This document shows, piece by piece, positions 11,939-63,971 of a DNA stretch of 64,000 bases. The notes below the pieces were generated by a model that searched no databases, was not told the DNA's origin, and saw only the letters and a list, made by a program, of their open reading frames with translations. Position 1 is the stretch's first letter. Every line of letters begins with the position of its first letter. The position numbers and the translations under genes were made by a program. This stretch comes from Octopus vulgaris (taxonomy: Eukaryota). The stretch spans positions 2,046,001 to 2,110,000 of the forward strand of contig OX597826.1 of assembly GCA_951406725.2 (NCBI GenBank), given 5' to 3'.

Positions 11939-12587
11939 AGCTGTGTGGTAAGTAGCTTGCTTAGCAACCACATGGTTCCGGGTTCAGTCCCACTGCTTGG
12001 CAACTTGGGCAAGTGTCTTCTTATTTCTTTATTGCCCACAGGGGGCTAAACACAGAAGGGACAAACAAGGATAGACAAACGGATTAAGTTGATTACATCG
12101 ACTCCAGGGCGTAACTGGTACTTAATTTATCGACCCCGAAAGGATGAAAGGCAAAGTCGATCTCGGCGGTATTTGAACTCAGAACGTTACGGCAGACGAA
12201 ATAAAGTTACGCATTTCGCTCGGCGTGCTAACGTTCCTGCCAGCTCGCCTTGGGCAAGTGTCTTCTACTATATCCTCGTGCCGACCAAAGCCTTGTGAGT
12301 GGATTTGGTAGACGGAAACTGAAAGAAGCCCACCGCATATATATATATATATATGTATATATATGTGCGTGTGCGTGCGTGTGTGTGTGTGTATGAATTT
12401 TTGTGTGTCTTTATTCCCTCATCATCGCTTGACAATCGATGTTGGTGTTTTTACGTCCCCGTAACTTAGCGCTTCGGCAAAAGGGAACGATAGGATAAGT
12501 ACTAGGCTTATAAAGAATAAGTTTTGTTCGACTAAAGGTGGTGCTCCAGCATAGCCGCAGTCAAATGACTGAAACGAGTAAAAGAAT
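11939..12587 (+). mobile_element. SINE family A interrupted by a nested family B insertion
   Basis: Family A sequence resumes in register after the insert; CTTGGGCAAGTGTCTTCT is duplicated at 12004-12021 and 12249-12266. Confidence 0.92.
12022..12248 (-). mobile_element. SINE family B, long-tail form, with 18-bp TSD
   Basis: Family B head and core, then tail TTTGTCTATCCTTGTTTGTCCCTTCT...GGGCAATAAAGAAATA, flanked by the 18-bp duplication. Confidence 0.92.
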
Positions 12588-25030: not shown

Positions 25031-25857
25031 AAGGCGGCCGGCTGGCAGAACCGTTAGCACGCCGGGCGAAATGCTTAGCGTATTTTGTCTGCCGTTATGT
25101 TCTGAGTCCAAATTCCGCCGAGGTCGACTTTGCCTTTCATCCTTTCGGGGTCGATAAATTAAGTACCAGTTACGCACCAGTGTCGATGTAATCGACTTAA
25201 TCCCTTTGTTTGTCCCTTCTATGTTTATCCCCTTGTGTGCAATAAAGAAATAAGAAAGTTAGCACGCCGGGCGAAATGCTTAGCGATATTTCGTCTGCCG
25301 CTACGTTCTGAGTTCAAATTCCGCCGAGGCGGACTTTGCCTTTCATCCTTTTTGGGTCGACTAAATAACTACCAGTTACGCTCTGGGGTCGATATAATCG
25401 ACTTAATCCATTTGTCTGTCATTGTTTGTCATATCTGTGTTAAGCTCCTTGTGGGTAGTAAAGAAATAGGTATTTCGTCTGCCGTAACGTCTGAGTTCAA
25501 ATTCTGCCGAGGTTGACTATGCCTTTCATCCTTTCGGAGTCAATAAATTAAGTACCAGTTACGCACTAGGGTCATGTAATCGATTTAATCCTTTTCTCTG
25601 TCCTTGTTTGTCGCCCTCTATGTTTAGCCCCTTGTGGGCAATAAAGAAATAAGAAACGTTGAGCACGCCGGGCGAAACGCTTAACGGCATTTCATATGTG
25701 TTTATGTTCTGAGTTCAAATTCTGCCGAGATTGACTTTGTCTTTCATTCTTTCTGGGTATATGACATACGTACCAGTTGAATACTGGGGTCGATATAATC
25801 GAGTTATCTCATCCCGCTGAACTTTCTGGTTTTGTGTCAAAATTTGAAGCCAATATT
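25031..25857 (+). mobile_element. Head-to-tail array of four family B SINE units (three long-tail, one terminal short-tail)
   Basis: Tails ending GAAATA at 25252, 25468 and 25651 are each followed by a 5'-truncated B head. Confidence 0.92.
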
Positions 25858-25909: not shown

Positions 25910-26160
25910 TCGGGTTCGAATCTCAGACCGGGTGATGTGAGTGTTTAAGAGCGAAACACCTAAGATTCACGCAGCTCCGGCAGATGGTAATGGCGAACTT
26001 CTGCTGACTCTTTCGCCAGAACTTTCTCTCACTCTTTCCTCCTGCATATTGCAGCTCACCTGCGACGGACCGGCATCCTGTTCAGGTGGGGATCTATACG
26101 CGAAGGAAACCGAGAAACAAGCCCTTATGAGTCAAGTATGACTCGAAAAGGAAGAAACAA
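25910..26160 (+). mobile_element. SINE family D, 5'-truncated
   Basis: Starts at the B box GGGTTCGAATCTC; colinear with 56130-56388. Confidence 0.88.
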
Positions 26161-26169
26161 TATTGTAAT

Positions 26170-27045
26170 AGTGGTTTCAGATTTTGGTACAAAGGCAACA
26201 ATTTCGAAGTAAGGAGTTTGTTGATTACATCGACCCCACTGCTAGACTGGTATTTATTCTGTCGAACCCATAAAGATTAAAATCAAACTTGACTTCAGGT
26301 GGATTTGAACCATAATGACGGACAAAATGTCGCTAAGGCCTTTTTGCCCGACATGCTAACGTTTCAGCCAGCTCACCGCTTTGATATTGTTGTAGCATTA
26401 AAGGGTTGCGCTGCTGGATGTCTGGGTATTAAATATTGGTTTAAAATTTTGGCACAATATCAGGAATTTCGGTGTGGTGAGCTAGTTGATTACATCAATC
26501 CCAGTATTCAACTGGTACTTATTTTAGCGGCTTCGAAAGGACGAAAATCAAAGCCAATCTTGGTGAAATTTGAAATCAGAGCGTAGGAGTGGCTGTGTGG
26601 TAAGTAGCTTGCTTACCACGTTCAGTCCCACTGCATGGCACCTTGGGGAAGTGTCTTCTACTATAGCCTCGGGCCGACCAAAGACTTGTAAGTGGATTTG
26701 GTAGATATATATATATATATATATATATACGTGTGTGTGTGTGTGTGTGTGTGTATATGTTTGTGTATCTGTGTTTCTCTCCCCAACATCGCTTGACAAC
26801 CGATGCTGGTGTGTTTACGTCCCCGTAACTTGGCGGTTCGGCAAAAGAGACCGATAGAATAAATATTAGGCTTACAAAGAATAAGTCCTGGGGTCGATTT
26901 GTTCGACTAAAGGCGGTGCTCCAGCATGGCCACAGTCAAATGGCTGAAACAAGTAAAAGAGTAAAAGAGAACTTAAAGATGAATGAAATTCCGCTAAGCA
27001 TTTTTGCCCAACATGCTAACTATTCTTCCAGCCCGCTGCCGCCTT
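26170..27045 (-). mobile_element. Two diverged family B copies, the second interrupted by a family A SINE
   Basis: B-like reverse sequence at ~26170-26385 and at ~26435-26580 plus 26970-27045. The flank TTGATATTGTTGTA.CATTAAAGG.TTGCGCTGCTGGATGT is also duplicated at ~26381 and ~27044. Confidence 0.75.
26581..26969 (+). mobile_element. SINE family A nested in a family B copy
   Basis: GCGTAGGAGTGGCTGTGTGG head to GTAAAAGAG tail; B sequence resumes afterwards. Confidence 0.9.
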
Positions 27046-27154
27046 GATATTGTTGTAACATTAAAGGATTGCGCTGCTGGATGTAGAGGTATTCAACGTT
27101 GCCCACATTATTGTGCTTTATTGCTGTACCATGCTTAGTGTTAACTATGAATGT

Positions 27155-29760: not shown

Positions 29761-30559
29761 ATTCGATATCTAATGATTTGTTAAATATCAACCATAAGCT
29801 TTTTGAATTACTGTTTCAATTCCATTGTTTTTTTTCCCCTCCTTTTTCGGAATCTCATAAAATATGATTGATGACATCAGGTCCTGTGGGGTTACAGAAA
29901 ACTTTCTCTTCCAATTACCCATACAATTAAATATGCAGATTTTGTTTTGGTGAAGAAGTTCTGAGACGAGGTCAAAGGTTTTAAATATATTCAGACTATG
30001 GTCTTTGCTTTCCACATGAATCCTCTCTTTCCATTTGAATAAAACCTTTCAAATTAACCATTTAACGTTAATGCTTGTTTTACGGTGATAACATAGCCAT
30101 AAGCAGATGAAAGACGAATCATTGTCTTAATATAACATTGTGTATTATCGTTATCTTCACCCGGGATCGTATCATACAATTCCCTCTTTCTTAATCAATA
30201 TTTACGAAAGGTTTGTACTCTGTGCAAAGCATAGCAAAACGGACCAACCTTTTTACTACAGAAATATATCCACTCAGAATTTCATTACTCTCAACTGCAG
30301 AAAGCAGTTTTGTATACCAATCTATCTATTGTTGGGAAATGTCACGTTTGAAACTAGTTTTTGTTGAGATATGTCAAGTTTATCGAGGTAAATGCGACTT
30401 ACAGAAAAGATCAATTCTATTTTTGGTAGATGTTTATATCAGTACTGGAATAACATTGATATTTAATTTCAGAGTTAAAGAGTTAAATCCAAAATTCAGT
30501 TTCCGACCAGAGATAACAACAGAAATCATGCCGCAGATTTTAACTGAAGAAAGACGCAT

Positions 30560-30730
30560 AATTTAGGCGGTTTTATACAACGTATAATTAATATATGACG
30601 TGTAATTTAAACGATTTTATATAACGCATAATTTATATATGATGTATAATTTGAGCGGGTTTATATAACGTATAATTTATATATGTCAAATAATTTACAT
30701 ATAATACATAATTGAAGTGGTTTTACATCT
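30560..30730 (+). repeat. AT-rich minisatellite, period ~44 bp (two ~22-bp halves)
   Basis: AATTT...G.TTTATATAACGTATAATTTATATATG recurs 3-4 times. Confidence 0.75.
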
Positions 30731-31134
30731 AAAATTACGCTAATACAATCAACTTTAGAGCACCTCATGTGTGTGAAGGACATACAACGTTTGTGTTATC
30801 TTGTTCATTAGTTGTTTAATTCTAGATCCTTCTTGAATAAGCAACTATATATTCAAAGACGTTCCAAACATGTCCATCCTAGTGCATATTACTTCAATTA
30901 TGTATTTCTTTTATAAGATGTTAGTGTGTTATTCGAGAGACATTTGACTGCTGTTTACAGCAGTAAAGACTTGCCACAGAAGATAATGCAATTCGTACCA
31001 GATCCCATGTCGTCACATCCTGACACTGATAGCTCGTGCTAGCTTCAAAGCAATAGATTTTATTCTTAAATCTGCTGCCATACAAGACTTCAATATGGTA
31101 ATATGGTAATTGGAAGCATTATCGAAGATTTGTC

Positions 31135-31525
31135 CGGCAGTGAGCTAGCAGTAACTTTACAGTGCCGGACAAAATGCTTAGCGGTATTTCATCTGTCTTT
31201 ACGTTCTGAGTTCAAATTCCACCGAGGTCGACTTTGCCTTTCATCCTTTCGGGGTCGATTAAATAAGTACCAGTTACGCACTGGGGTCGATGTAATCGAC
31301 TTAATCCATTTGTCTGTCCTTGTTTGTCTTCTCTGTGTTCAGGGTAGTAAAGAAATAGGTATTTCATCTGTCTTTACATTCTGAGTTGAAATTCCACCGA
31401 GGTCGACTTTACCTTTCATTATTTCGACGCTGATAAATTGAAGTACCAGTTGCGCATTGGGGGTCGATGTAATCGACTACACACTTCCACCCAATTTCCA
31501 GCCTTGGGATTATGTTAGATATTAT
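31135..31525 (+). mobile_element. Long-tail family B unit (31203-31357) inserted in register into an older B copy
   Basis: GGTATTTCATCTGTCTTTAC is duplicated at 31183-31202 and 31358-31377. Confidence 0.88.
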
Positions 31526-31541
31526 CATTATTATTATTATT

Positions 31542-32080
31542 GAGTGAGAAATCATTGCATGCCATCAAAGTGAAACTGGGGTAAAATACACGAAGCCCAT
31601 CATGACTACTCGTCTGATAAGGGTACTCAAGGCACATGCATCACAAACATATGTACGCGACTTGGTGATCTCATATCAAGATAAACAGCACATGACCTTG
31701 CAGGTGGGGCCCCAGTTAGAATTTTCTTTCGGTCGAGTAACCCATCCCGCTCAAAAGGTCCCTGAATAAGGGTTGTTTAAGGATGTTGAACGAAACACCC
31801 ATTATCCCAGTGGTGAATTATTCAAACCCCAAAGAATCCCTCTCAACACATGGCTATGATGCTCCCCCACTACTTCTGCTCCTGATCAGAGATGCACATA
31901 TCGTCAGGCACTAAGGGACATGCTTTAACTAGTTAAAGTCATAGAACTGACAAGCAAATCTGTGGTATTCAGCAGAATATTTGCTGTAGCCCATCTTTTA
32001 TACCAAGACAAAACAATGTACATGATAACACTTCCTATCAGTTAAGATCAGAAGCCACGTGGGCCACTGCGTGGTACTGT
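31542..32080. mobile_element. Unclassified interspersed repeat between (ATT)n tracts
   Basis: Complex sequence flanked by (ATT)n; its left end recurs in reverse at 62918-62953, again inside (AAT)n. Confidence 0.6.
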
Positions 32081-32081
32081 A

Positions 32082-32163
<82 letters not shown>

Positions 32164-32287
32164 GTTATTGTTATTATTATTATTATTGTTATTGTTATTG
32201 TTGTTATTATTATTGTTATTGTTATTGTTATTGTTATTATTATTATTATTGTTATTGTTATTGTTGTTATTATTATTGTTATTGTTA

Positions 32288-32355
<68 letters not shown>

Positions 32356-32373
32356 GTTATTATTATTATTATT

Positions 32374-32585
32374 AAAGGCGGCAAGCTGGCAGAATCGGTA
32401 GCACGCCTTACAAGATGCTCAGGGGCATTTCGTCCGTCTTTATGTTCTGAGATCGTATACCGCCGAAGTCGACTTTACCTTTCATTCTTTCGGGGTCAAT
32501 AAAATGAAATATTAGCATCGATGTAATTGGCTAACACCCTCTCTCAAATTTTCAGGCCTTGCGCCTATATTAGAAAGGATTATTA
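32374..32585 (+). mobile_element. SINE family B, short-tail form
   Basis: Homologous to 4635-4853. Confidence 0.85.
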
Positions 32586-33050: not shown

Positions 33051-33261
33051 ACTGAGACACTTCATAGGGAAACATTTCGAACTAAATTTCTTTCATTTCT
33101 TATATATTATTTATTAGTTTTTCATCGCGCCTTCTAAAACCCTTAAAATCACCAATTATCTTGTCCCAAGTCGGAAGTAATTAACCGTTTTAAATATTTA
33201 AATCCTTAAAAATGTTTTAGCCCGAAGGCCGCGGCCATGCTGGGGCACCACCGCTGTGAAA

Positions 33262-33663
33262 TTTTGGAAGAAAGGCAGTATGTTTGGGGATGGGCTAAGT
33301 CGATTAAACCAACCCTATTTTTCAACTGGTACTTATTTTATCGACTCCAAAGGGATGAAAGGCAAAGTCGACCCTGGCACAGTTTGAACTCAGAATGTAA
33401 AGCATTTTGCAAGGCATGCTAACGGTTCTTATTTCTTTATTGCCCAACAAGGGGCCAAACATAGAGGGGACGAAGAAGGACAGACAAAGGGATTAAGTCG
33501 ATTACATCGGCCCCAGTGTGTAACTGGTACTTAATTTATCGACCCCGAAAGAATGAAAGGCAAAGTCGACCTCGGCGGAATTTGAACTCAGAACTTAACG
33601 GCAGACGAAATACGGCTACGCGTTTCCCCCGGCGTGCAAACGTTTCTGTCAGATCGCCGCCTT
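33262..33663 (-). mobile_element. Long-tail family B unit (33430-33663) joined to an older B copy (33262-33429)
   Basis: Minus-strand junction GGGCAATAAAGAAATA|AGAACCGTTAGCATGCC. Confidence 0.88.
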
Positions 33664-38144: not shown

Positions 38145-38183
38145 AGGCGCAGGAGTGGCTGTGTGGTAAGTAGCTTGCTAACC
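38145..38183 (+). mobile_element. 5' part (A box) of the family A SINE split by the LINE
   Basis: AGGCGCAGGAGTGGCTGTGTGGTAAGTAGCTTGCTAACC. Confidence 0.95.
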
Positions 38184-38572
38184 TCACTGACAGAAGAGTG
38201 ACTTTGCTTACCGTACTACGGTTTGGACGCGTTTTCTTCCCGGTAAGAATTTTGCTGTGTTGTTAATTGTTGAATTCCTACTACTGAAAATTTGCCATTA
38301 AACGTTGCCGAACTGTCTTGTTCTCCGGTTTTACCGGGAAGTAATTGAATAATTTCTTACCGTTGAACTGTTAGCCACTGTGGCTTTTTATTTACGTGAC
38401 TATACATAGTCCTGCCAGACTATTTTCGTGCCCCTCCCCCGAATGGGGGTGGGAATTGGAATTTTTGAACTACTTTTTTGAACTACTTTGGAAGAAAAAC
38501 TTTCTATAGGTTTCCCAGTTTTGTGGGAAACCAATACTCGTAATTTTTGTGTTGTCTAATTTCAACAGAATA

Positions 38573-39984
38573 ATGTCTGTTGAAATTATTCACGAAAGTA
38601 GTGCTCTTGAGGAGAGCAATGTTAAAAAATTTTCTGAGGTAGCCGCAGTGGCTACCGAGAAAATTGACATCGATGTCAACCAGCTCGTCGAGCTATTTAA
38701 AAAAATGCAAGAAAAGGGTGGTGATGTTAAAATATCACCCTCCGCCAGTATCGTGGAGACCGAGAAGCGGACCGTAGTGTTTAAAACTTTCTGTCCACAA
38801 AGCAGAAGGTTCAAACACTTTGAAAAAAGTACCATCGAGAAATGCCTGTCCCCGATTTGGAAGGACATCGTGTACGTCGCCAGGGGACGGGCATATGGCA
38901 CAGTGGATGTCCGCTTCTCGGGGAAAGAAATGGCCCGAGGGCATTCTGTAAACCCCCTAAAAACCAAGGAGGTGGTACTTTTTCCAAGCTATAGGGGACG
39001 CAGGACGTCCCGGGTCAGGATTGTAGAAGCCCCGCCGGAAGTTGATCCGGTAGAGGTAGTGGCCGCCCTATTATATAAAAGGGCGGACAAAATAAAAATA
39101 CTAGAAGTAACATGCTCTACCCCTCGATTTTGGCTCGGGCGTAACATTAATATATTAATTCAAGGAACAGCGGAGGACCTACAGCTCCTTCCTGAGAGGG
39201 TGCTCGTGGGCGAGAACGTAGCCCTCAGGGTACAGGTCGAAGGCCGAAAACCCACCTGTTACGCCTGCGGCGAAAAGGGCCACATTCGTGTAGACTGTCC
39301 AGACAAGCAAAAGAAACCGCAGACACCAGGCCCCTCAGATAATAAAAAAAGTCCCTACCCTTGCAAACACACCTAACCCTACAAAAAAAAAACACAAAAA
39401 ATCCCACTCCTGCTGTTACGGTGCCAACCCCAAAACAGACTGAAGAAAAAACCCAGCCCTCGCACTCACAAACCCCTACACTATTAAAACCTCCCACCCC
39501 CCTAAAAACTGCGGCGCCTACCGAACAAACTATTGCTACCCCAGACGATACCATGGAGGTATCAGAGGGGGGATTTACACCAGTTCGTAAAAGAATTCGT
39601 GCAGCATCCCCGTCCACATCCCCTACAAAAAATAATAAAAACAAAGACACACCACAGACACGGAAAAAAAAATCCCGCTCAACTGGCCCAGAAAAAGAAG
39701 ACAAAAAAGAAAATGAACTCATATTAATTGAATTCGACGCACAAGACAAATACATAAACGATATTGTGGTTCAGCATCAGTCAGCAAGACTGTACAACAA
39801 ATACAAAGATCGAAATAGACACGCGTGGATTGCGGAAACAACGTTCAAACAATTAAAAGACAGACACCCAAACGCCATCCGGCATGTCGCGAACTTTCCG
39901 GACTATCTGAAGAAAGAGGAGAAAGAAGGGGCCCACAAACGTGTGGTGAGGTCGGCCCCCACCTCTCCAACGAAATGTAAGTAG
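38573..39984 (+). pseudogene. LINE ORF1 (gag-like nucleic-acid-binding protein), one -1 frameshift near 39344-39373
   Basis: ATG at 38573, zinc knuckle CYACGEKGHIRVDC, then a Pro/Thr/Lys-rich continuation in the overlapping frame (39361-39984) ending 17 nt before ORF2. Confidence 0.85.
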
Positions 39985-40001
39985 AACTTTTACTTTTTGT
40001 A

Positions 40002-43000
40002 ATGGCTTCGCTTAACCTTGGTTGTTTAAATGTGCGTGGTCTGAGTTCGAAGTGGAAGCAGGCTTGTTTCCTCGACGACCTCAGATCACATGATATACAT
40101 GTGATGGTTGCTACAGAGACCAAGCTGGACAGCCTACAAACCTTCTCGCCTCTCCTGAATGGCTACGAGAAAATCATGTCTCCTGGCCAGACCGGAGGGC
40201 GAGGGGGCGTAGTGGTACTGATCCGTAAAGACTTGGCTCTACAGACAAGTACAGTCTATGTAGACCCAGAAGGTGGGCTGGTCGTCCTTGATGTGACATA
40301 CAGCAGTAAGGCCTTCAGGTTGATCGGACTATATGCACCTTGTGCTAGAGGTTTCCAAACTGATTTTTATCGGCGCCTAGAGGGCTTTCTCGTGACGTCG
40401 AAGACTTTAGTGATATTAGGGGACTTTAATGCTATCGTTGACGTACACATCGATAGCGTTGGCTCGATCTATAGGAAAGTGAACTCACGTCTCGTGGATC
40501 TGCTTAAGCGGTTTCAGCTAGTAGATCGTTACAGACTTGACCATCCGAACGTCCCAGAGTGGACCTGGATGAGTGGCGACGGAAGGTTCAAGTCTTATCT
40601 AGACAGGATAGTGATAAGAACTAGAGATAAGTCTAGTTTTAGTTGTCCACAGCTCGTCCAGGTGCCCTATACTGACCATAGAATGGTCACGTGTAGACTG
40701 GACATAGATAGCACACTTAAGATAGGAACCGGCTACTGGAAGCTGAACAAGTCTATTTTGACACGCGAGGCATACCGTAGCCGGATTAAGGTGTTAGTGC
40801 AGAGGGCGTTAACCGGAGCCGTGGTTAATAACCGGTGGTGGTTCACCCTCAAAAGAGCCATTCGATTCGAGTCCATTAGATTTAGTAAACAACTAAGACT
40901 AGATAGGGCTAGAATAGAAGGGCAACTAGTTAAGAACTTAGAGGAGGCGTTGAGGTTGGGCTCTGCATCTCACATTTTAGCGGCGAGAACGGCATTAGAC
41001 CGTCACCTCAAAACCAAACATGAGGGATGTAGAATCCGGGCTAAAGTACGAGCATTGGGCCGTGAGGGAATTAATGTTGCCGGATGGGCCCGTACGATAG
41101 AAACACAGCGTGGAAACGATGCCACAATTGGGTCTCTTGTTGATGAAAACGGATGCACGATCAAGAAGCGGGACGAGATGTGTGAGGCACTTCACAAGCA
41201 CTTCGCCGAGTTGTTCGGGAGGTGCGGGACGCTGGATCATGGTGAGGCCCTTAGGGACTTCCTGTCTGGTGGCCCGCGCCTCTCGACACGAGAGGCTGAG
41301 TGCTGTGAAGGGCCAATCACAGCCGAGGAAGTAATCGAAGTGTTGGGCAAGTGCCCCGGGGAGAAGTCGCCGGGTCTCGATGGTCTGCCCTATGAATTTT
41401 ATAGAAGTATGCCAGACTTGTTCGGGCACCTGCTGGCTAGCGTCTACGCCAACTGGCAGCAGAATGGGAGAATTCCCAAGTCTGCGAGCCGGGGGGCGGT
41501 GACGTTGATCAGGAAGGACCCGAACAAGGGGGACGAGATAGGGAACTTCAGGCCCATAACTCTGTTAAACACAGAGTTAAAGATTCTGGCCAAGGTGCTA
41601 GCAAAAAGGTTGGCGCGGGTCGTGGACAAACTTGTCGGGGAAGCGCAAACGTGCGCTATCCCCGGCAGAACGATCCACGACAATCCCCACCTTATACGCT
41701 ACTCCTTAGAGAGGGTGGGGAAGCTTTCTGGCGCAGGGGGAGCACTGGTACATTTAGACCAGTCCAAAACATTTGATAGGGTCGACCATCGGTACCTGGC
41801 GGCGGTCCTCGGAGAGGCTGGCCTAGGCCCGACCTTTCGAGGTTGGATCGCTGCTTTGTATAGCGACATCGAGTCTGTAGTCAAAGTGAACGGTTCCTTT
41901 TCGAAGCCGTTCAGGATCGAGCGTTCAGTTCGTCAAGAGTGCCCCCTGTCCTCGCTCCTATACGTATTGGCTCTTGAGCCTTTGCTGCGGGAGTTGGAGG
42001 CACTAGGGGCGCGCCGCATGATCTATGGTGTGGAAGAGGAGCTACGGCGTATGCGGATGACACCTCCATCATCGTGGCAGACGAAGGCCAGCTTCCAGTG
42101 GTGGAAGAGGCCATCAAAAGCTACGAGGCGGTGGCAGGAGCAAAGGTTAACAAGGACAAGTCGGTCGGTTTGCAACTCGGCACCTGGAGGGGCAAGCCGA
42201 TGCCGTCCAATAACGTCGTAGGGCGTTGGACGGAAGGTCCTGTTAAGCTGCTCGGAGTCTGGTTCGGGCCAGACCTCCAGATTGAGAAAAATTGGAGTGA
42301 GGTGGCCAACAAGGTGACCGCTCTAACCCAGACCTGGTCTGGGCGGGCGTTATCCCTGCTAGGGAAGGCGGAGGTGGTGCAGATGTTTATAGCATCAGTA
42401 ATCACCTACCGTCTGACCGTGGTGCCTTGCCCCGATTTGTGGCTGAACAAGTTGGAGAGAATCCTTTTCCGATTTTTGTGGAAAGGAGGAAGGCCACTTG
42501 TAAAGCGCTCTGTCTGCTGCCAGAAACCGCTAAAGGGTGGGCTAGGGATGCCTTGGCTGAGGATGCGAAAACTCGCGTTAAGGTTGAGGCACCTCTGGCT
42601 TTACCTGGATGGAGAGCAGGTGTGGCCACCGCACGTCCTGTTCTACCTTCCCCAGTTAACATCCCTAACGGACATCGGTGCATGGATCAAGCGGAGACCT
42701 AAACTGAGTGAATGGCATTTGGAGTGCCGTCAGGCGCTCCAGCTACTATCTCGGGTGGGCAACGCCGGCAACAGGAGTTCCACCACGGATTTCTATAGCG
42801 GGTTAGTGGAGATTAAGTCCGAAGACGCCTTGGAGGAGACCCTGGGCTACGATGAAAATCAGTTGGTCAACCTGTTCCGGAGGACGTTCGGGCCGGGGTA
42901 TCTGGATAATTACCAGAAATCCCTGGCCTGGCAGTGTTTCCGTGCGGCTTTACCTGTTCGCGACAAGCTGTCAAGGCACGGTAGTGTCGTCTCGCCGACA

Positions 43001-43402
43001 TGCCCGCGATGTGAGCAGGATAGGGAGACCGTCTTGCACGCATTCGTGGAGTGTCCGGAGTTATCGGGACTGATAGCTTTTGTTGAACAACTGTTGTCAG
43101 TGATGGGAAGAGTACAGCTATCAGCTGAGTCTATCATCGAGACTGTGCCGCCCCCTTTCCTTAACAGGGAAAGAAAGGCTTGTTTTTTCTGTGTAGTAGC
43201 CATACTGAAAGAAACAGTATGGAAGACGCGTACGAAAGGTATAGTGACAGGGACCTTTGTCTCCGGCCAGGGGTTGATTAACTTTTTTAGTTACCACCTC
43301 AGTAGCAAAATCAGGCTGGAGAAGAGGTGTCTGTCACGAGATATGTTTGCGAAAAGATGGAAGCCTGTGGCATACAAGATGGGTATGTTTGGCACCAGGT
43401 AA
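40002..43402 (+). pseudogene. LINE ORF2: AP endonuclease + reverse transcriptase + CCHC, one -1 frameshift near 42006-42009
   Basis: APE motifs NVRGL, YAP, GDFN, LDR and TDH; GYWKLN; RT motifs KSPGLDG, NFRPITLLN, DQSKTFDRV and QECPLS; AYADD at 42047-42061 in the second frame; C-terminal CPRC...HAFVEC. Confidence 0.95.
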
Positions 43403-43630
43403 GTGTGACCGGATCAGAAAGTAAAGGTTCTACCCGGATGGCTGGGTGTCCGTCCTTCGACATGATCATTAATATTTTTAAACATTGCCTTCGTAAAATT
43501 CATTGTTTATAATCTTACCCGTAATTTCATTCGAAAATTGTAACTGTGTTAAGCTACTTCACCCTTTATATTTGTCTGTCCTTGTTTGTCCCCTCTTTGT
43601 AAATGCCTAAATGGCAAATTATATGAAATA

Positions 43631-43773
43631 AAGTAGCTTGCTAACCAACCACATGGTTCTGGGTTCAGTCCCACTGCGTGGCATCTTGGGCAAGTGTCTT
43701 CTGCTATAGCCCCGGGCCGACCAATGCTTTGTGAGTGGATTTGGTAGACGGAAACTGAAAGAAGCCTGTCGTA

Positions 43774-59960: not shown

Positions 59961-60732
59961 GCATATATACATACACACACATATATATATATTTGTATGT
60001 ATGTATATACACACACACACAGACACAGACACATACGTAATGTAATGGAAGAAGGAAGGGCTATCAGTTTCTCCTAGATTTATTTGCAAGCTTTTCTCCC
60101 AGACAGATGAAGTCAATGTGATTGATGTCCAGTCAGATCTTTTATAGGTCAATGGCCGTAGGTGTAGACTATCGGAAAATGATGCAATTCCGTTCATTAA
60201 GATTCCAGCGAACTGTTCAGTTTGCTTTATAGCCCCGAGACAACCATGATCAAGCAAATCTATGATCAAAGTCGTTCCACCCATGATCATCCAGTTGTTT
60301 TTGGTTGCTTTTTTGACGTTGTATGTTTAGAAGTACTAATTATATTGCGCGTTCGTTTCGTTTCCTCTGAATCAATAATATTTCCTTTGATCTTAATATA
60401 TAAATAAAATAAGCCGCTGCTTTAATCCTACATTGAAACCTAATCTGTGACGGCGTGTGGCCGCATGGTAAATGCGTTCTGTTTATGATCATATGTTGGT
60501 AGGTTCAATTCCTGCACCAGGCAGGGCGTCATGTCTTTCAGCATGACATTCCGTTACACGTTGCTCTTGTCTACACAGCAGCAATGTATACAATCTGTTA
60601 GTCCAACCATCTATTCTCCAAGCTGAGGCATCTTAGAAATAATTATTAGGTAGAGATTTCGAGGATATTTTGCTTTTATTTCTAGCAGGTTGATCTCAAA
60701 GGGAAACCCATCTTTTGCATCAAAAGAATATG

Positions 60733-60916
60733 TCAGACAAAGGGATGAAGTCGATTATTTCGACCCCGGTGCGTAACTGGTACTTAATTTATCGATCCCC
60801 AAAGGATGAAAGGCAAAGTCGACCTCGGCGGAATTTGAACTCAGAACGTAGCGACAAACGAATTACCGCTAAGCATTTCGCCCGGCGTGCTAACGTTTCT
60901 GCCAGTTCGCCGCCTT
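60733..60916 (-). mobile_element. SINE family B with a truncated long tail
   Basis: Clean head and core; the tail breaks off after CCCTTTGTCTG. Confidence 0.88.
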
Positions 60917-61202
60917 TCGATCTTCTTGTGGAAACAACGCTATAATATTTTATCTCATGGAAGACGATAGTCTGTGGTTTGAGGAATATTTGGCTGTTAT
61001 TTCTTGCAGAATGTGAGGATCAGAAGTTATCCGTGTCGGCCGCAACTTCATAAACATTCCAAACAGTTAGTGAAAACATTTTGCTATACTATGCTCACTC
61101 GGTGTAGGCAGATCTCTTTCTCCCCAGCATTCACATCTTTAATTTTTCCCTGTTTCAAGTGCGAGGAACCCAAGCGAGTGTCTTTATTTGCTCGCAATTA
61201 CA

Positions 61203-63030: not shown

Positions 63031-63971
63031 CCTAGCCCAAAGTAAGGAATCCTTCATAGTGTCAGTTAGGAACGAGGGATGTAATGAAAGCAGAGAAAAA
63101 AGAAGAAAAAAACGATGGAAGAAGTACAAAAAGGATACGAAGAAGAATTACGCAACAAGGGAGAGCACAATCAATTCGATGTAGCCACAACAGAAGTTAC
63201 TGGAAAAAATAGGTGGGATTGGCTGAAGAACAGAACACTAAAAAAGGAGACCGAGAACCCTATACTGGCAACTCAAGACGAAGCTTTGGCCACGAACACG
63301 AGGGTCAACCTTTGGAATGAGCAAGTGTCTTCACTATGACGCATCTGTAATAGAGTGGGTGAAACTATTGCCCTTATCACAAAGAAATGCCCTAGATTTG
63401 CCCAAAACCACTCACTATAAGTTGTGGCGACATGATCAGGTAGAGAAAGTGTTACATTGGAAACTGTGCGAAAAGTGGAGGAGATAGTGGAGGAGTTGGA
63501 GATTAACAAAATCTTCTGGGATTTCCCAATCCAAACAGATCAGGTACGAGAGCATGACTGACCGGACCTAGTGGTGGTTGACAAGGTGCACCACGTATGC
63601 TATATAGTTGATGTTGCATGTCCCTTTGACGCACGAATAATCAAGAAGGATGGCGAAAAGATAGATAAATACAACCCCCTTATGTACGAAATAGCCCGGC
63701 TATGGAAAATGAAGAAGGTGAAGATAACACCAGTTATTGTTAGGTCTTTGGGAACAGTATCAGAAGGGATCAAGAGGAACATAAAAGAAATTGGAATAGA
63801 GTGCCCAATAGAACTGATGCAAAAGGTTTGCCTCCTTGGCACGGCCAGAATAATCAGGAAAACATTAAATAGCTGAAAAGAACGGATAGCATGGTATCAT
63901 AGGCGGCAGGTAGCAATCCCTCCACACATGCAAGACTCCGGGTGCTCTAACAAAACCTGTGATAAAAAAGA
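63031..63971 (+). mobile_element. 5'-truncated RLE-type non-LTR retrotransposon (R4/Dong-like) in (TAA)n
   Basis: WDWLKNRTLKKETE...ATQDEALATN, a decayed CCHC, PDLVVVDK...IVDVACPFD...EKIDKY (PD-D/ExK endonuclease) and QKVCLLGTARIIR; (TAA)n on both sides. Confidence 0.88.

Follow-up and report, generated by a model that had tools for sequence, protein, structure and literature searches.

A young SINE lying in register inside an older member of its own family in Octopus vulgaris, and its probable placement by an L1/Tx1-type LINE with a putative cut motif

Within a 64,000-nt stretch of the Octopus vulgaris genome (hereafter the window), we found a dimer of two SINE units at 31135-31541 in which unit 1 is a chimera, consisting of a decayed head of the short-tail type and a young long-tail body, and unit 2 is an old short-tail body. 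The most probable explanation, in our judgement, is that a young long-tail SINE was put in register into an older short-tail copy of its own family by the enzyme of an L1/Tx1-type LINE that likely prefers TRGY^RR (^ marks the cut) in tRNA-type SINEs. The features on which this reading is based are listed in Table 1.

The two units share the 20-mer GGTATTTCATCTGTCTTTAC, which is present, as originally stated, exactly at 31183-31202 and 31358-31377; it was found nowhere else on either strand of the 64-kb window. In an alignment of 18 family units, from which three faint matches were left out, the dimer pair alone among the 120 pairs of family units covering the site was identical over the 20-mer columns, and the next-longest perfect run from this site in any other pair was 8 nt. 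Unit 1 aligns gap-free from the head through the long tail, which places the junction in register. The original prediction had treated the variants within the 20-mer as non-consensus; this holds for A at 31191, which is near-private (0/6 long-tail and 2/7 short-tail units), but not for T at 31196 and T at 31198, which are states of the short-tail subfamily rather than private variants. At 31198, G was found in 6/6 other long-tail units and in 0/8 short-tail units with a letter, and both dimer units carry T (unit s_26590 was left out here, as its letters at this position come from another element). Outside the 20-mer, A at 31221/31396 is also common to both dimer units, and therefore either a recurrent CpG change or a longer duplicated tract is required; the position is a CpG site, and 23-36% of contig depth, which is biased to the reference, is not G. 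Because of this additional shared base, we place the end of the duplicated tract between 31198 and ~31235, a tract of 16-20 nt being likelier. The B-type junction itself (31352-31365) reads as a perfect short inverted repeat, GAAATA-GG-TATTTC, possibly by chance; a role as a priming aid was set aside, given that the repeat has 6 bp and the wrong sense for pairing with an RNA primer.

Bases unlike the majority states of both subfamilies were then counted. In unit 1, they made up 10/47 positions of the head, 1/20 of the 20-mer and 2/99 of the body (head versus body, p=2e-4); in unit 2, they made up 10/99 of the body, more than in the body of unit 1 (p=0.03). Unit 1 carries short-tail bases up to 31198 and long-tail bases beyond, unit 2 is of the short-tail type all along, and the diagnostic bases at 31276 and 31302 are split by subfamily between the two units. 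These counts bear out the earlier proposals that a young long-tail SINE was inserted in an old short-tail copy with duplication of the target, and that unit 1 combines an old A-box region with a new B box and a long tail. Private variants along the whole of both units, which had been named as the sign of local duplication, were absent, the two units being separated by 13 substitutions over 31203-31302. Nor does the locus resemble a true Alu-like dimeric SINE, in which both units are equally old and moved as one. When bodies were pooled, young upstream units showed 10/295 differences and old downstream units 38/297 (p=3e-5). A contig of organism B contains the same left flank and decayed head, with 15 differences in 471 nt, and ends at 31191; contigs of organism D cover 30720-30912 at this locus. 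In four sequencing runs, one of them of raw reads with just 8 matching reads, no piece crossed the whole locus. Because organism B has the same decayed head, most of the head decay predates the split from organism B, and the insert looks about as old as that split.

Table 1. Features of the dimer locus, related SINE copies and the candidate partner LINE in the 64-kb window.
Feature	Position	Strand	Evidence
Old decayed head of host short-tail-type SINE, A-box position 31146-31156	31136-31182	+	10/47 bases unlike both subfamily majorities
5' copy of target duplication with bases of the host type; cut context TAGC^GG	31183-31202	+	Exact match, alignment
Young long-tail-type body of insert, B box 31210-31219	31203-31302	+	2/99 differences; B box 9/10 to motif
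Long tail type B, 10-nt deletion, ends GAAATA, related to LINE 3' UTR	31303-31357	+	Alignment, blastn
3' copy of duplicated target	31358-31377	+	Exact match
Rest of old host SINE: body, short tail, TAT-rich end	31378-31541	+	Body 10/99 differences; alignment
Array of four units, three with long tails (A, B, A) plus an old short-tail unit; junctions 25253, 25469, 25652	25033-25850	+	Alignment
Dimer: long-tail unit type A, then old short-tail unit at AGAA site	33240-33663	-	Body 2/99 vs 15/99, p=0.0015
Long-tail monomer type A, antisense in family-2 SINE, context TAGT^AG	12022-12248	-	18-nt duplication 12249-12266 / 12004-12021
16-nt exact LINE target duplication, context TGGT^AA, in head (A-box region) of family-2 tRNA-type SINE	38168-38183; other copy 43631-43646	+	Sequence match
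Full-length L1/Tx1-type LINE: zinc-knuckle ORF1; ORF2 with endonuclease, RT, zf-RVT	38184-43630	+	Pfam, PDB matches
LINE 3' UTR segment in common with SINE long tail, ends GAAATA	43570-43630	+	Exact 20-mer; alignment

The family to which both units belong gave 20 nhmmer matches in the 64 kb, and between 163,000 and 374,000 contigs matched it per contig run, as expected of a short, dispersed, high-copy, non-coding repeat. It has two forms with head and body in common, a short-tail form with an AT-rich run at its end and a long-tail form that ends in AAAGAAATA. ARAGORN found 0 tRNA matches in the window, and a search of Rfam with one SINE copy yielded 0 matches at E values up to 10; the family has a tail shared with a LINE and target duplications, as a tRNA-derived SINE does. 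By resemblance, this family (family 1) may be Deu-like and a second tRNA-type SINE in the window (family 2) may be CORE-like. A segment suspected to be common to the two families did not show up in blastn, folding of 6 sequences gave no convincing shared tail hairpin (z from +0.2 to -2.0), and pattern scans returned 0 loci in metagenome contigs, prokaryote genomes and viral contigs.

All five self-junctions in the window, where a unit of the family abuts another, are in register. The unit after a long tail varies by locus and can be a short-tail unit, a long-tail unit of type A or B, or a family-2 SINE; this variation argues for independent origins of the junctions and against a single inherited multimer. 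Outer duplications around the dimers are absent or just 7-9 nt and AT-rich. Two further loci lie on the minus strand. At 26160-27100, a short-tail SINE underwent local tandem duplication together with ~58 nt of its 5' flank, and an antisense family-2 SINE (26583 to ~26960) subsequently interrupted one of the copies. At 60720-60918, there is a well-preserved long-tail copy with a full head, which ends ~10 nt into the tail and has a 5' flank that is not SINE. In organism E, the ratio of long-tail to body depth was far below that of organisms B and D (tail end at 0.8% versus ~6.5% of the peak bin; bins 31300-31357), hinting at a lineage-specific expansion of the type B long tail, with contig depth being a poor measure of copy number.

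The window also contains a LINE that likely represents the lineage partnering the long-tail SINE. Its domains match PF03372, PF00078 and PF13966, the zinc knuckle of ORF1 matches PF00098 (E=4e-6), and its best solved relative in the PDB is L1 ORF2p (E=7e-52); a frameshift interrupts each of the two ORFs, that of ORF2 lying near 42,000. As in other LINEs of the L1 group, there is an ORF1, an ORF2 with APE endonuclease, RT and a C-terminal zinc motif, and a target duplication of 16 nt, within the 7-20 nt of the group. A CCHC zinc knuckle in ORF1 is a feature of the Tx1 clade, and the architecture suggests that the element belongs to Tx1; three homologue look-ups (24 results, 20 results and cluster members) contained no Tx1-named match. 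The 3' UTR of the LINE and the long tail of the SINE have an exact 20-mer in common (0 expected in 100 shuffles) and match each other in blastn (E=5e-5). Since the good match spans just ~30 nt and the last 6, the true partner may be another LINE, to which the copy found here is related.

We found that the complete 3' ends of the LINE and of long-tail SINEs all lie inside tRNA-type SINEs, five of the seven in members of family 1, to which the SINE itself belongs, and two in members of family 2; the copy at 60720-60918, which has no tail end, was left out of the seven. Four classes of site are used, TGGT^AA, TAGT^AG, TGGC^AG and TAGC^GG, and are summarised by TRGY^RR, a motif that was defined after the sites were seen and from which one upstream copy, reading TGAC, departs. 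Only two sense TRGY^RR sites occur in the least-decayed head, and they coincide with the two used for insertion. Across the window, 60-73 of 657 TRGYRR sites fall in SINEs, compared with 4/4 insertion loci when the 31183 locus is left out (p about 1e-4), and hence the motif alone is insufficient to account for the pattern. Tail type A was followed by AGAA in 4/4 cases and type B by GGTA in 2/2 (p=0.067). Contigs of organisms B and D also contain joints of the tail to GGTATTTC with long-tail-type letters (8 of the 12 rows listed, out of 600), and the B junction therefore recurs in related genomes. Behind 31339, loose ends past the B tail read GAT in organism B and AAA in organism D, too coarse to count, and B tails may also adjoin other sequence at times. 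Kojima 2015 treats Tx1 elements as target-specific when >20% of copies are flanked by one target repeat (PMC4494074); the 7/7 ends reported here come from one window and include one LINE copy. The partner LINE, the common cut motif and the second SINE family as a target were all absent from the original prediction.

Based on these observations, we propose the following course of insertion. The endonuclease would nick the bottom strand at TAGC^GG, and the GAAATA end would mark the start of reverse transcription. A top-strand nick 16-20 nt downstream would then release a 3' end of host bases, and because donor and target are of one family, this end would be homologous to the new cDNA. It could thus anneal to the cDNA in register and prime the second strand, with the surplus head cDNA being lost, and the product would have no second head but would show host bases at either copy of the site. 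Such a product would retain the upstream flank of the host and, at the 31183 locus, its decayed A box. The cut site would be regenerated, and repeated events would be expected to yield head-less tandem arrays such as 25033-25850, the unit order of which is reproduced by three nested events in the model. We consider it likely that SINE tandem arrays in this genome grow by repeated targeted insertion. The seamless, in-register 5' join by annealing that had been predicted earlier is upheld as far as register is concerned, whereas retention of host bases is demonstrated at only one of the five self-junctions, the 31183 locus, because at the four others the 5' copy is without any variant of the downstream unit. 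In many cases, the switch from host to donor may occur further upstream than the cut, so that the donor replaces the head.

The same end product could in principle have been reached in two steps, by conventional insertion of a full-length copy at this site followed by later recombination or slippage between the adjacent heads that removes one of them and leaves a seamless join. Special 5' joining would then be unneeded, and the four junctions without host variants in the 5' copy could be accounted for. However, host-type bases at the 31183 locus reach position 64 of at most 68 nt of homology, which would confine the crossover to the last 4 nt or fewer, an outcome expected in about 6% of cases at most if crossovers were random, and uncollapsed self-insertions number 0/5 in the window; we therefore regard this route as fairly improbable. 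Improbable, too, is a route at the level of DNA, without any reverse transcription, in which the old SINE received one repeat unit from a non-allelic array by gap repair or unequal exchange. The extreme abundance of the family (see the contig counts above) speaks for it, and unequal recombination has been proposed for bivalve and reptile SINE arrays (PMC11481361, PMC10702118). Against this, host-type bases in both site copies require a staggered cut and fill-in, and the same 3' end and motif recur at non-homologous targets with true duplications.

Stereotyped junctions and the tracking of the site by tail type (4/4 and 2/2; p=0.067) are also what would be expected of a composite SINE that formed as a dimer on a single occasion and reached this locus whole, and dimeric SINEs are known (PMC10702118). 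The parts of such an element should be of equal age, but they are unequal at the 31183 locus (p=2e-4) and at 33663 (p=0.0015), although the difference in body age at the 25469/25652 junctions is not significant (p=0.15), and the downstream unit varies between loci. An inherited composite is thus largely refuted at the dimer locus, and we hold it to be highly improbable. Ordinary local tandem duplication of one SINE copy would be consistent with the shared A at 31221/31396 beyond the 20-mer and with the identity of 51/53 over 31183-31235. It is barely credible, as the tails of the two units are unrelated and of different subfamilies, the bodies differ by the 13 substitutions and the subfamily split at 31276 and 31302 described above, and the genuine local duplication at 26160-27100 also copies flank. 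Because unit 1 is chimeric and unit 2 is an old short-tail body, plain tandem duplication is excluded, and LINE-mediated insertion into an older copy remains our preferred reading.

In the best copies of the family, the A box matches its motif at 10/11 and the B box at 9/10 positions, with an A-B spacing longer than in tRNA. It had been predicted that every insertion rebuilds a full Pol III unit and turns an old short-tail locus into a long-tail source locus. The dimer locus does not support this: its A-box position reads TAGCAGTAACT, which agrees with the consensus at 7/11 positions compared with 10/11 in three other copies, and the A box that unit 1 inherited is decayed. The four other self-junctions, moreover, retain no host variants, and the prediction is neither favoured nor disfavoured for loci elsewhere. 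The first T4 after the dimer locus is at 31722, and a predicted transcript would run that far. A more far-reaching scenario, which we regard as doubtful, would make the element a self-homing SINE. Pol III would read through into the regenerated target, the 3' extension of the RNA would pair with nicked family members and the cDNA would anneal at the 5' side, such that each tail subfamily inherits its landing site (A to AGAA, B to GGTA) and old Pol III loci are recycled as sources. Homology-guided retrohoming of this kind would sweep the SINEs of the genome, perhaps tethered to Pol III factors; Pol III targeting is the topic of PMC5911963.

Each step of the proposed insertion course has a precedent, and the combination, a SINE apparently aimed at its own family by a partner LINE, appears not to have been described in what we found. 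The closest system is that of crocodilian SINEU and Tx1-Mar, which prefer the same site in Mariner and pile up in tandem (Kojima 2015, PMC4494074). There, as here, a SINE and a LINE, which in crocodilians is of the Tx1 clade, have a common site preference inside another repeat, the target duplication is 16 nt, and sequential insertions lead to tandem SINEs around the duplication (PMC4494074). The systems differ in that SINEU targets a DNA transposon, Mariner, to which it has no relation, and its tandem units sandwich the duplication (PMC4494074), whereas the present SINE lands in members of family 1, its own, and of family 2, and the units are head-less chimeras. Because the target is the SINE's own family, the present 5' join is hidden by homology. 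Annealing of cDNA to the upstream target was proposed by Stage and Eickbush 2009 for the precise 5' joins of R1 and R2 (PMC2718515). These elements are autonomous and rDNA-specific, their homology derives from co-transcribed 28S sequence, annealing is accompanied by loss of target sequence or by blunt joins, and cuts on the downstream side lead to variable joins (PMC2718515); in the present case, the homology sits inside the duplicated stretch.

The arrays also resemble those of bivalve SINEs and squamate SINE-derived satellites, which run head-to-tail, have a whole head in the first unit and a truncated one in those that follow, and have been put down mainly to unequal recombination (PMC11481361, PMC10702118), although the reptile SINE paper also names insertion into the same locus (PMC10702118). 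The inner units of bivalve arrays are without tails (PMC11481361), whereas every inner unit here has a complete LINE-related tail, and the units are of mixed age and subfamily. For octopus, tRNA-Deu and tRNA-CORE are the main SINE types and L1-Tx1 was recently active in O. vulgaris (PMC8967140, PMC13282606); the available portions of these two repeat accounts make no mention of nesting, self-insertion or LINE partners. Octopus OR1 and OR2 SINEs are merely cited in the portions available of PMC4758252 and PMC4824008. Among the titles and abstracts of the literature searched, none described a SINE with set landing positions among members of its own family; subscription papers and Repbase reports lay mostly outside this search, and an earlier description is possible. 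Chimeric L1 and Alu copies are formed occasionally, at scattered positions, by recombination of cDNA with resident copies. In them, too, the fresh cDNA is joined in register to an older copy of the family, but the present joins make up the majority and fall at two fixed sites.

Unequal recombination is the usual explanation for SINE tandem arrays, whereas the age structure, the duplicated host bases and the partner LINE described here point to repeated targeted insertion, and the proposed TRGY^RR cut motif makes this idea testable. If the process is general, many SINE copies would combine parts of two ages, with distorting effects on subfamily calls, repeat-age plots and SINE markers in these genomes, and thousands of natural records would exist of the start of second-strand synthesis, a poorly resolved step of LINE insertion. 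A mobile element for which older copies of itself serve as a safe landing site, and perhaps also as promoters, would, if true, extend known safe-haven strategies.

Three further stretches of the window were recorded. Upstream of the dimer locus, an AT-rich 44-bp tandem repeat occupies 30553-30697 in 3.3 copies. Downstream, 31540-32375 is a non-coding stretch with a long (TAT)n run at its end, directly followed by a short-tail SINE at 32375; we take it to resemble a LINE 3' fragment, which may relate to the partner of the short-tail form. Finally, an open frame of 104 aa at 63562-63876 on the plus strand presumably resembles the restriction-like endonuclease end of another non-LTR element.
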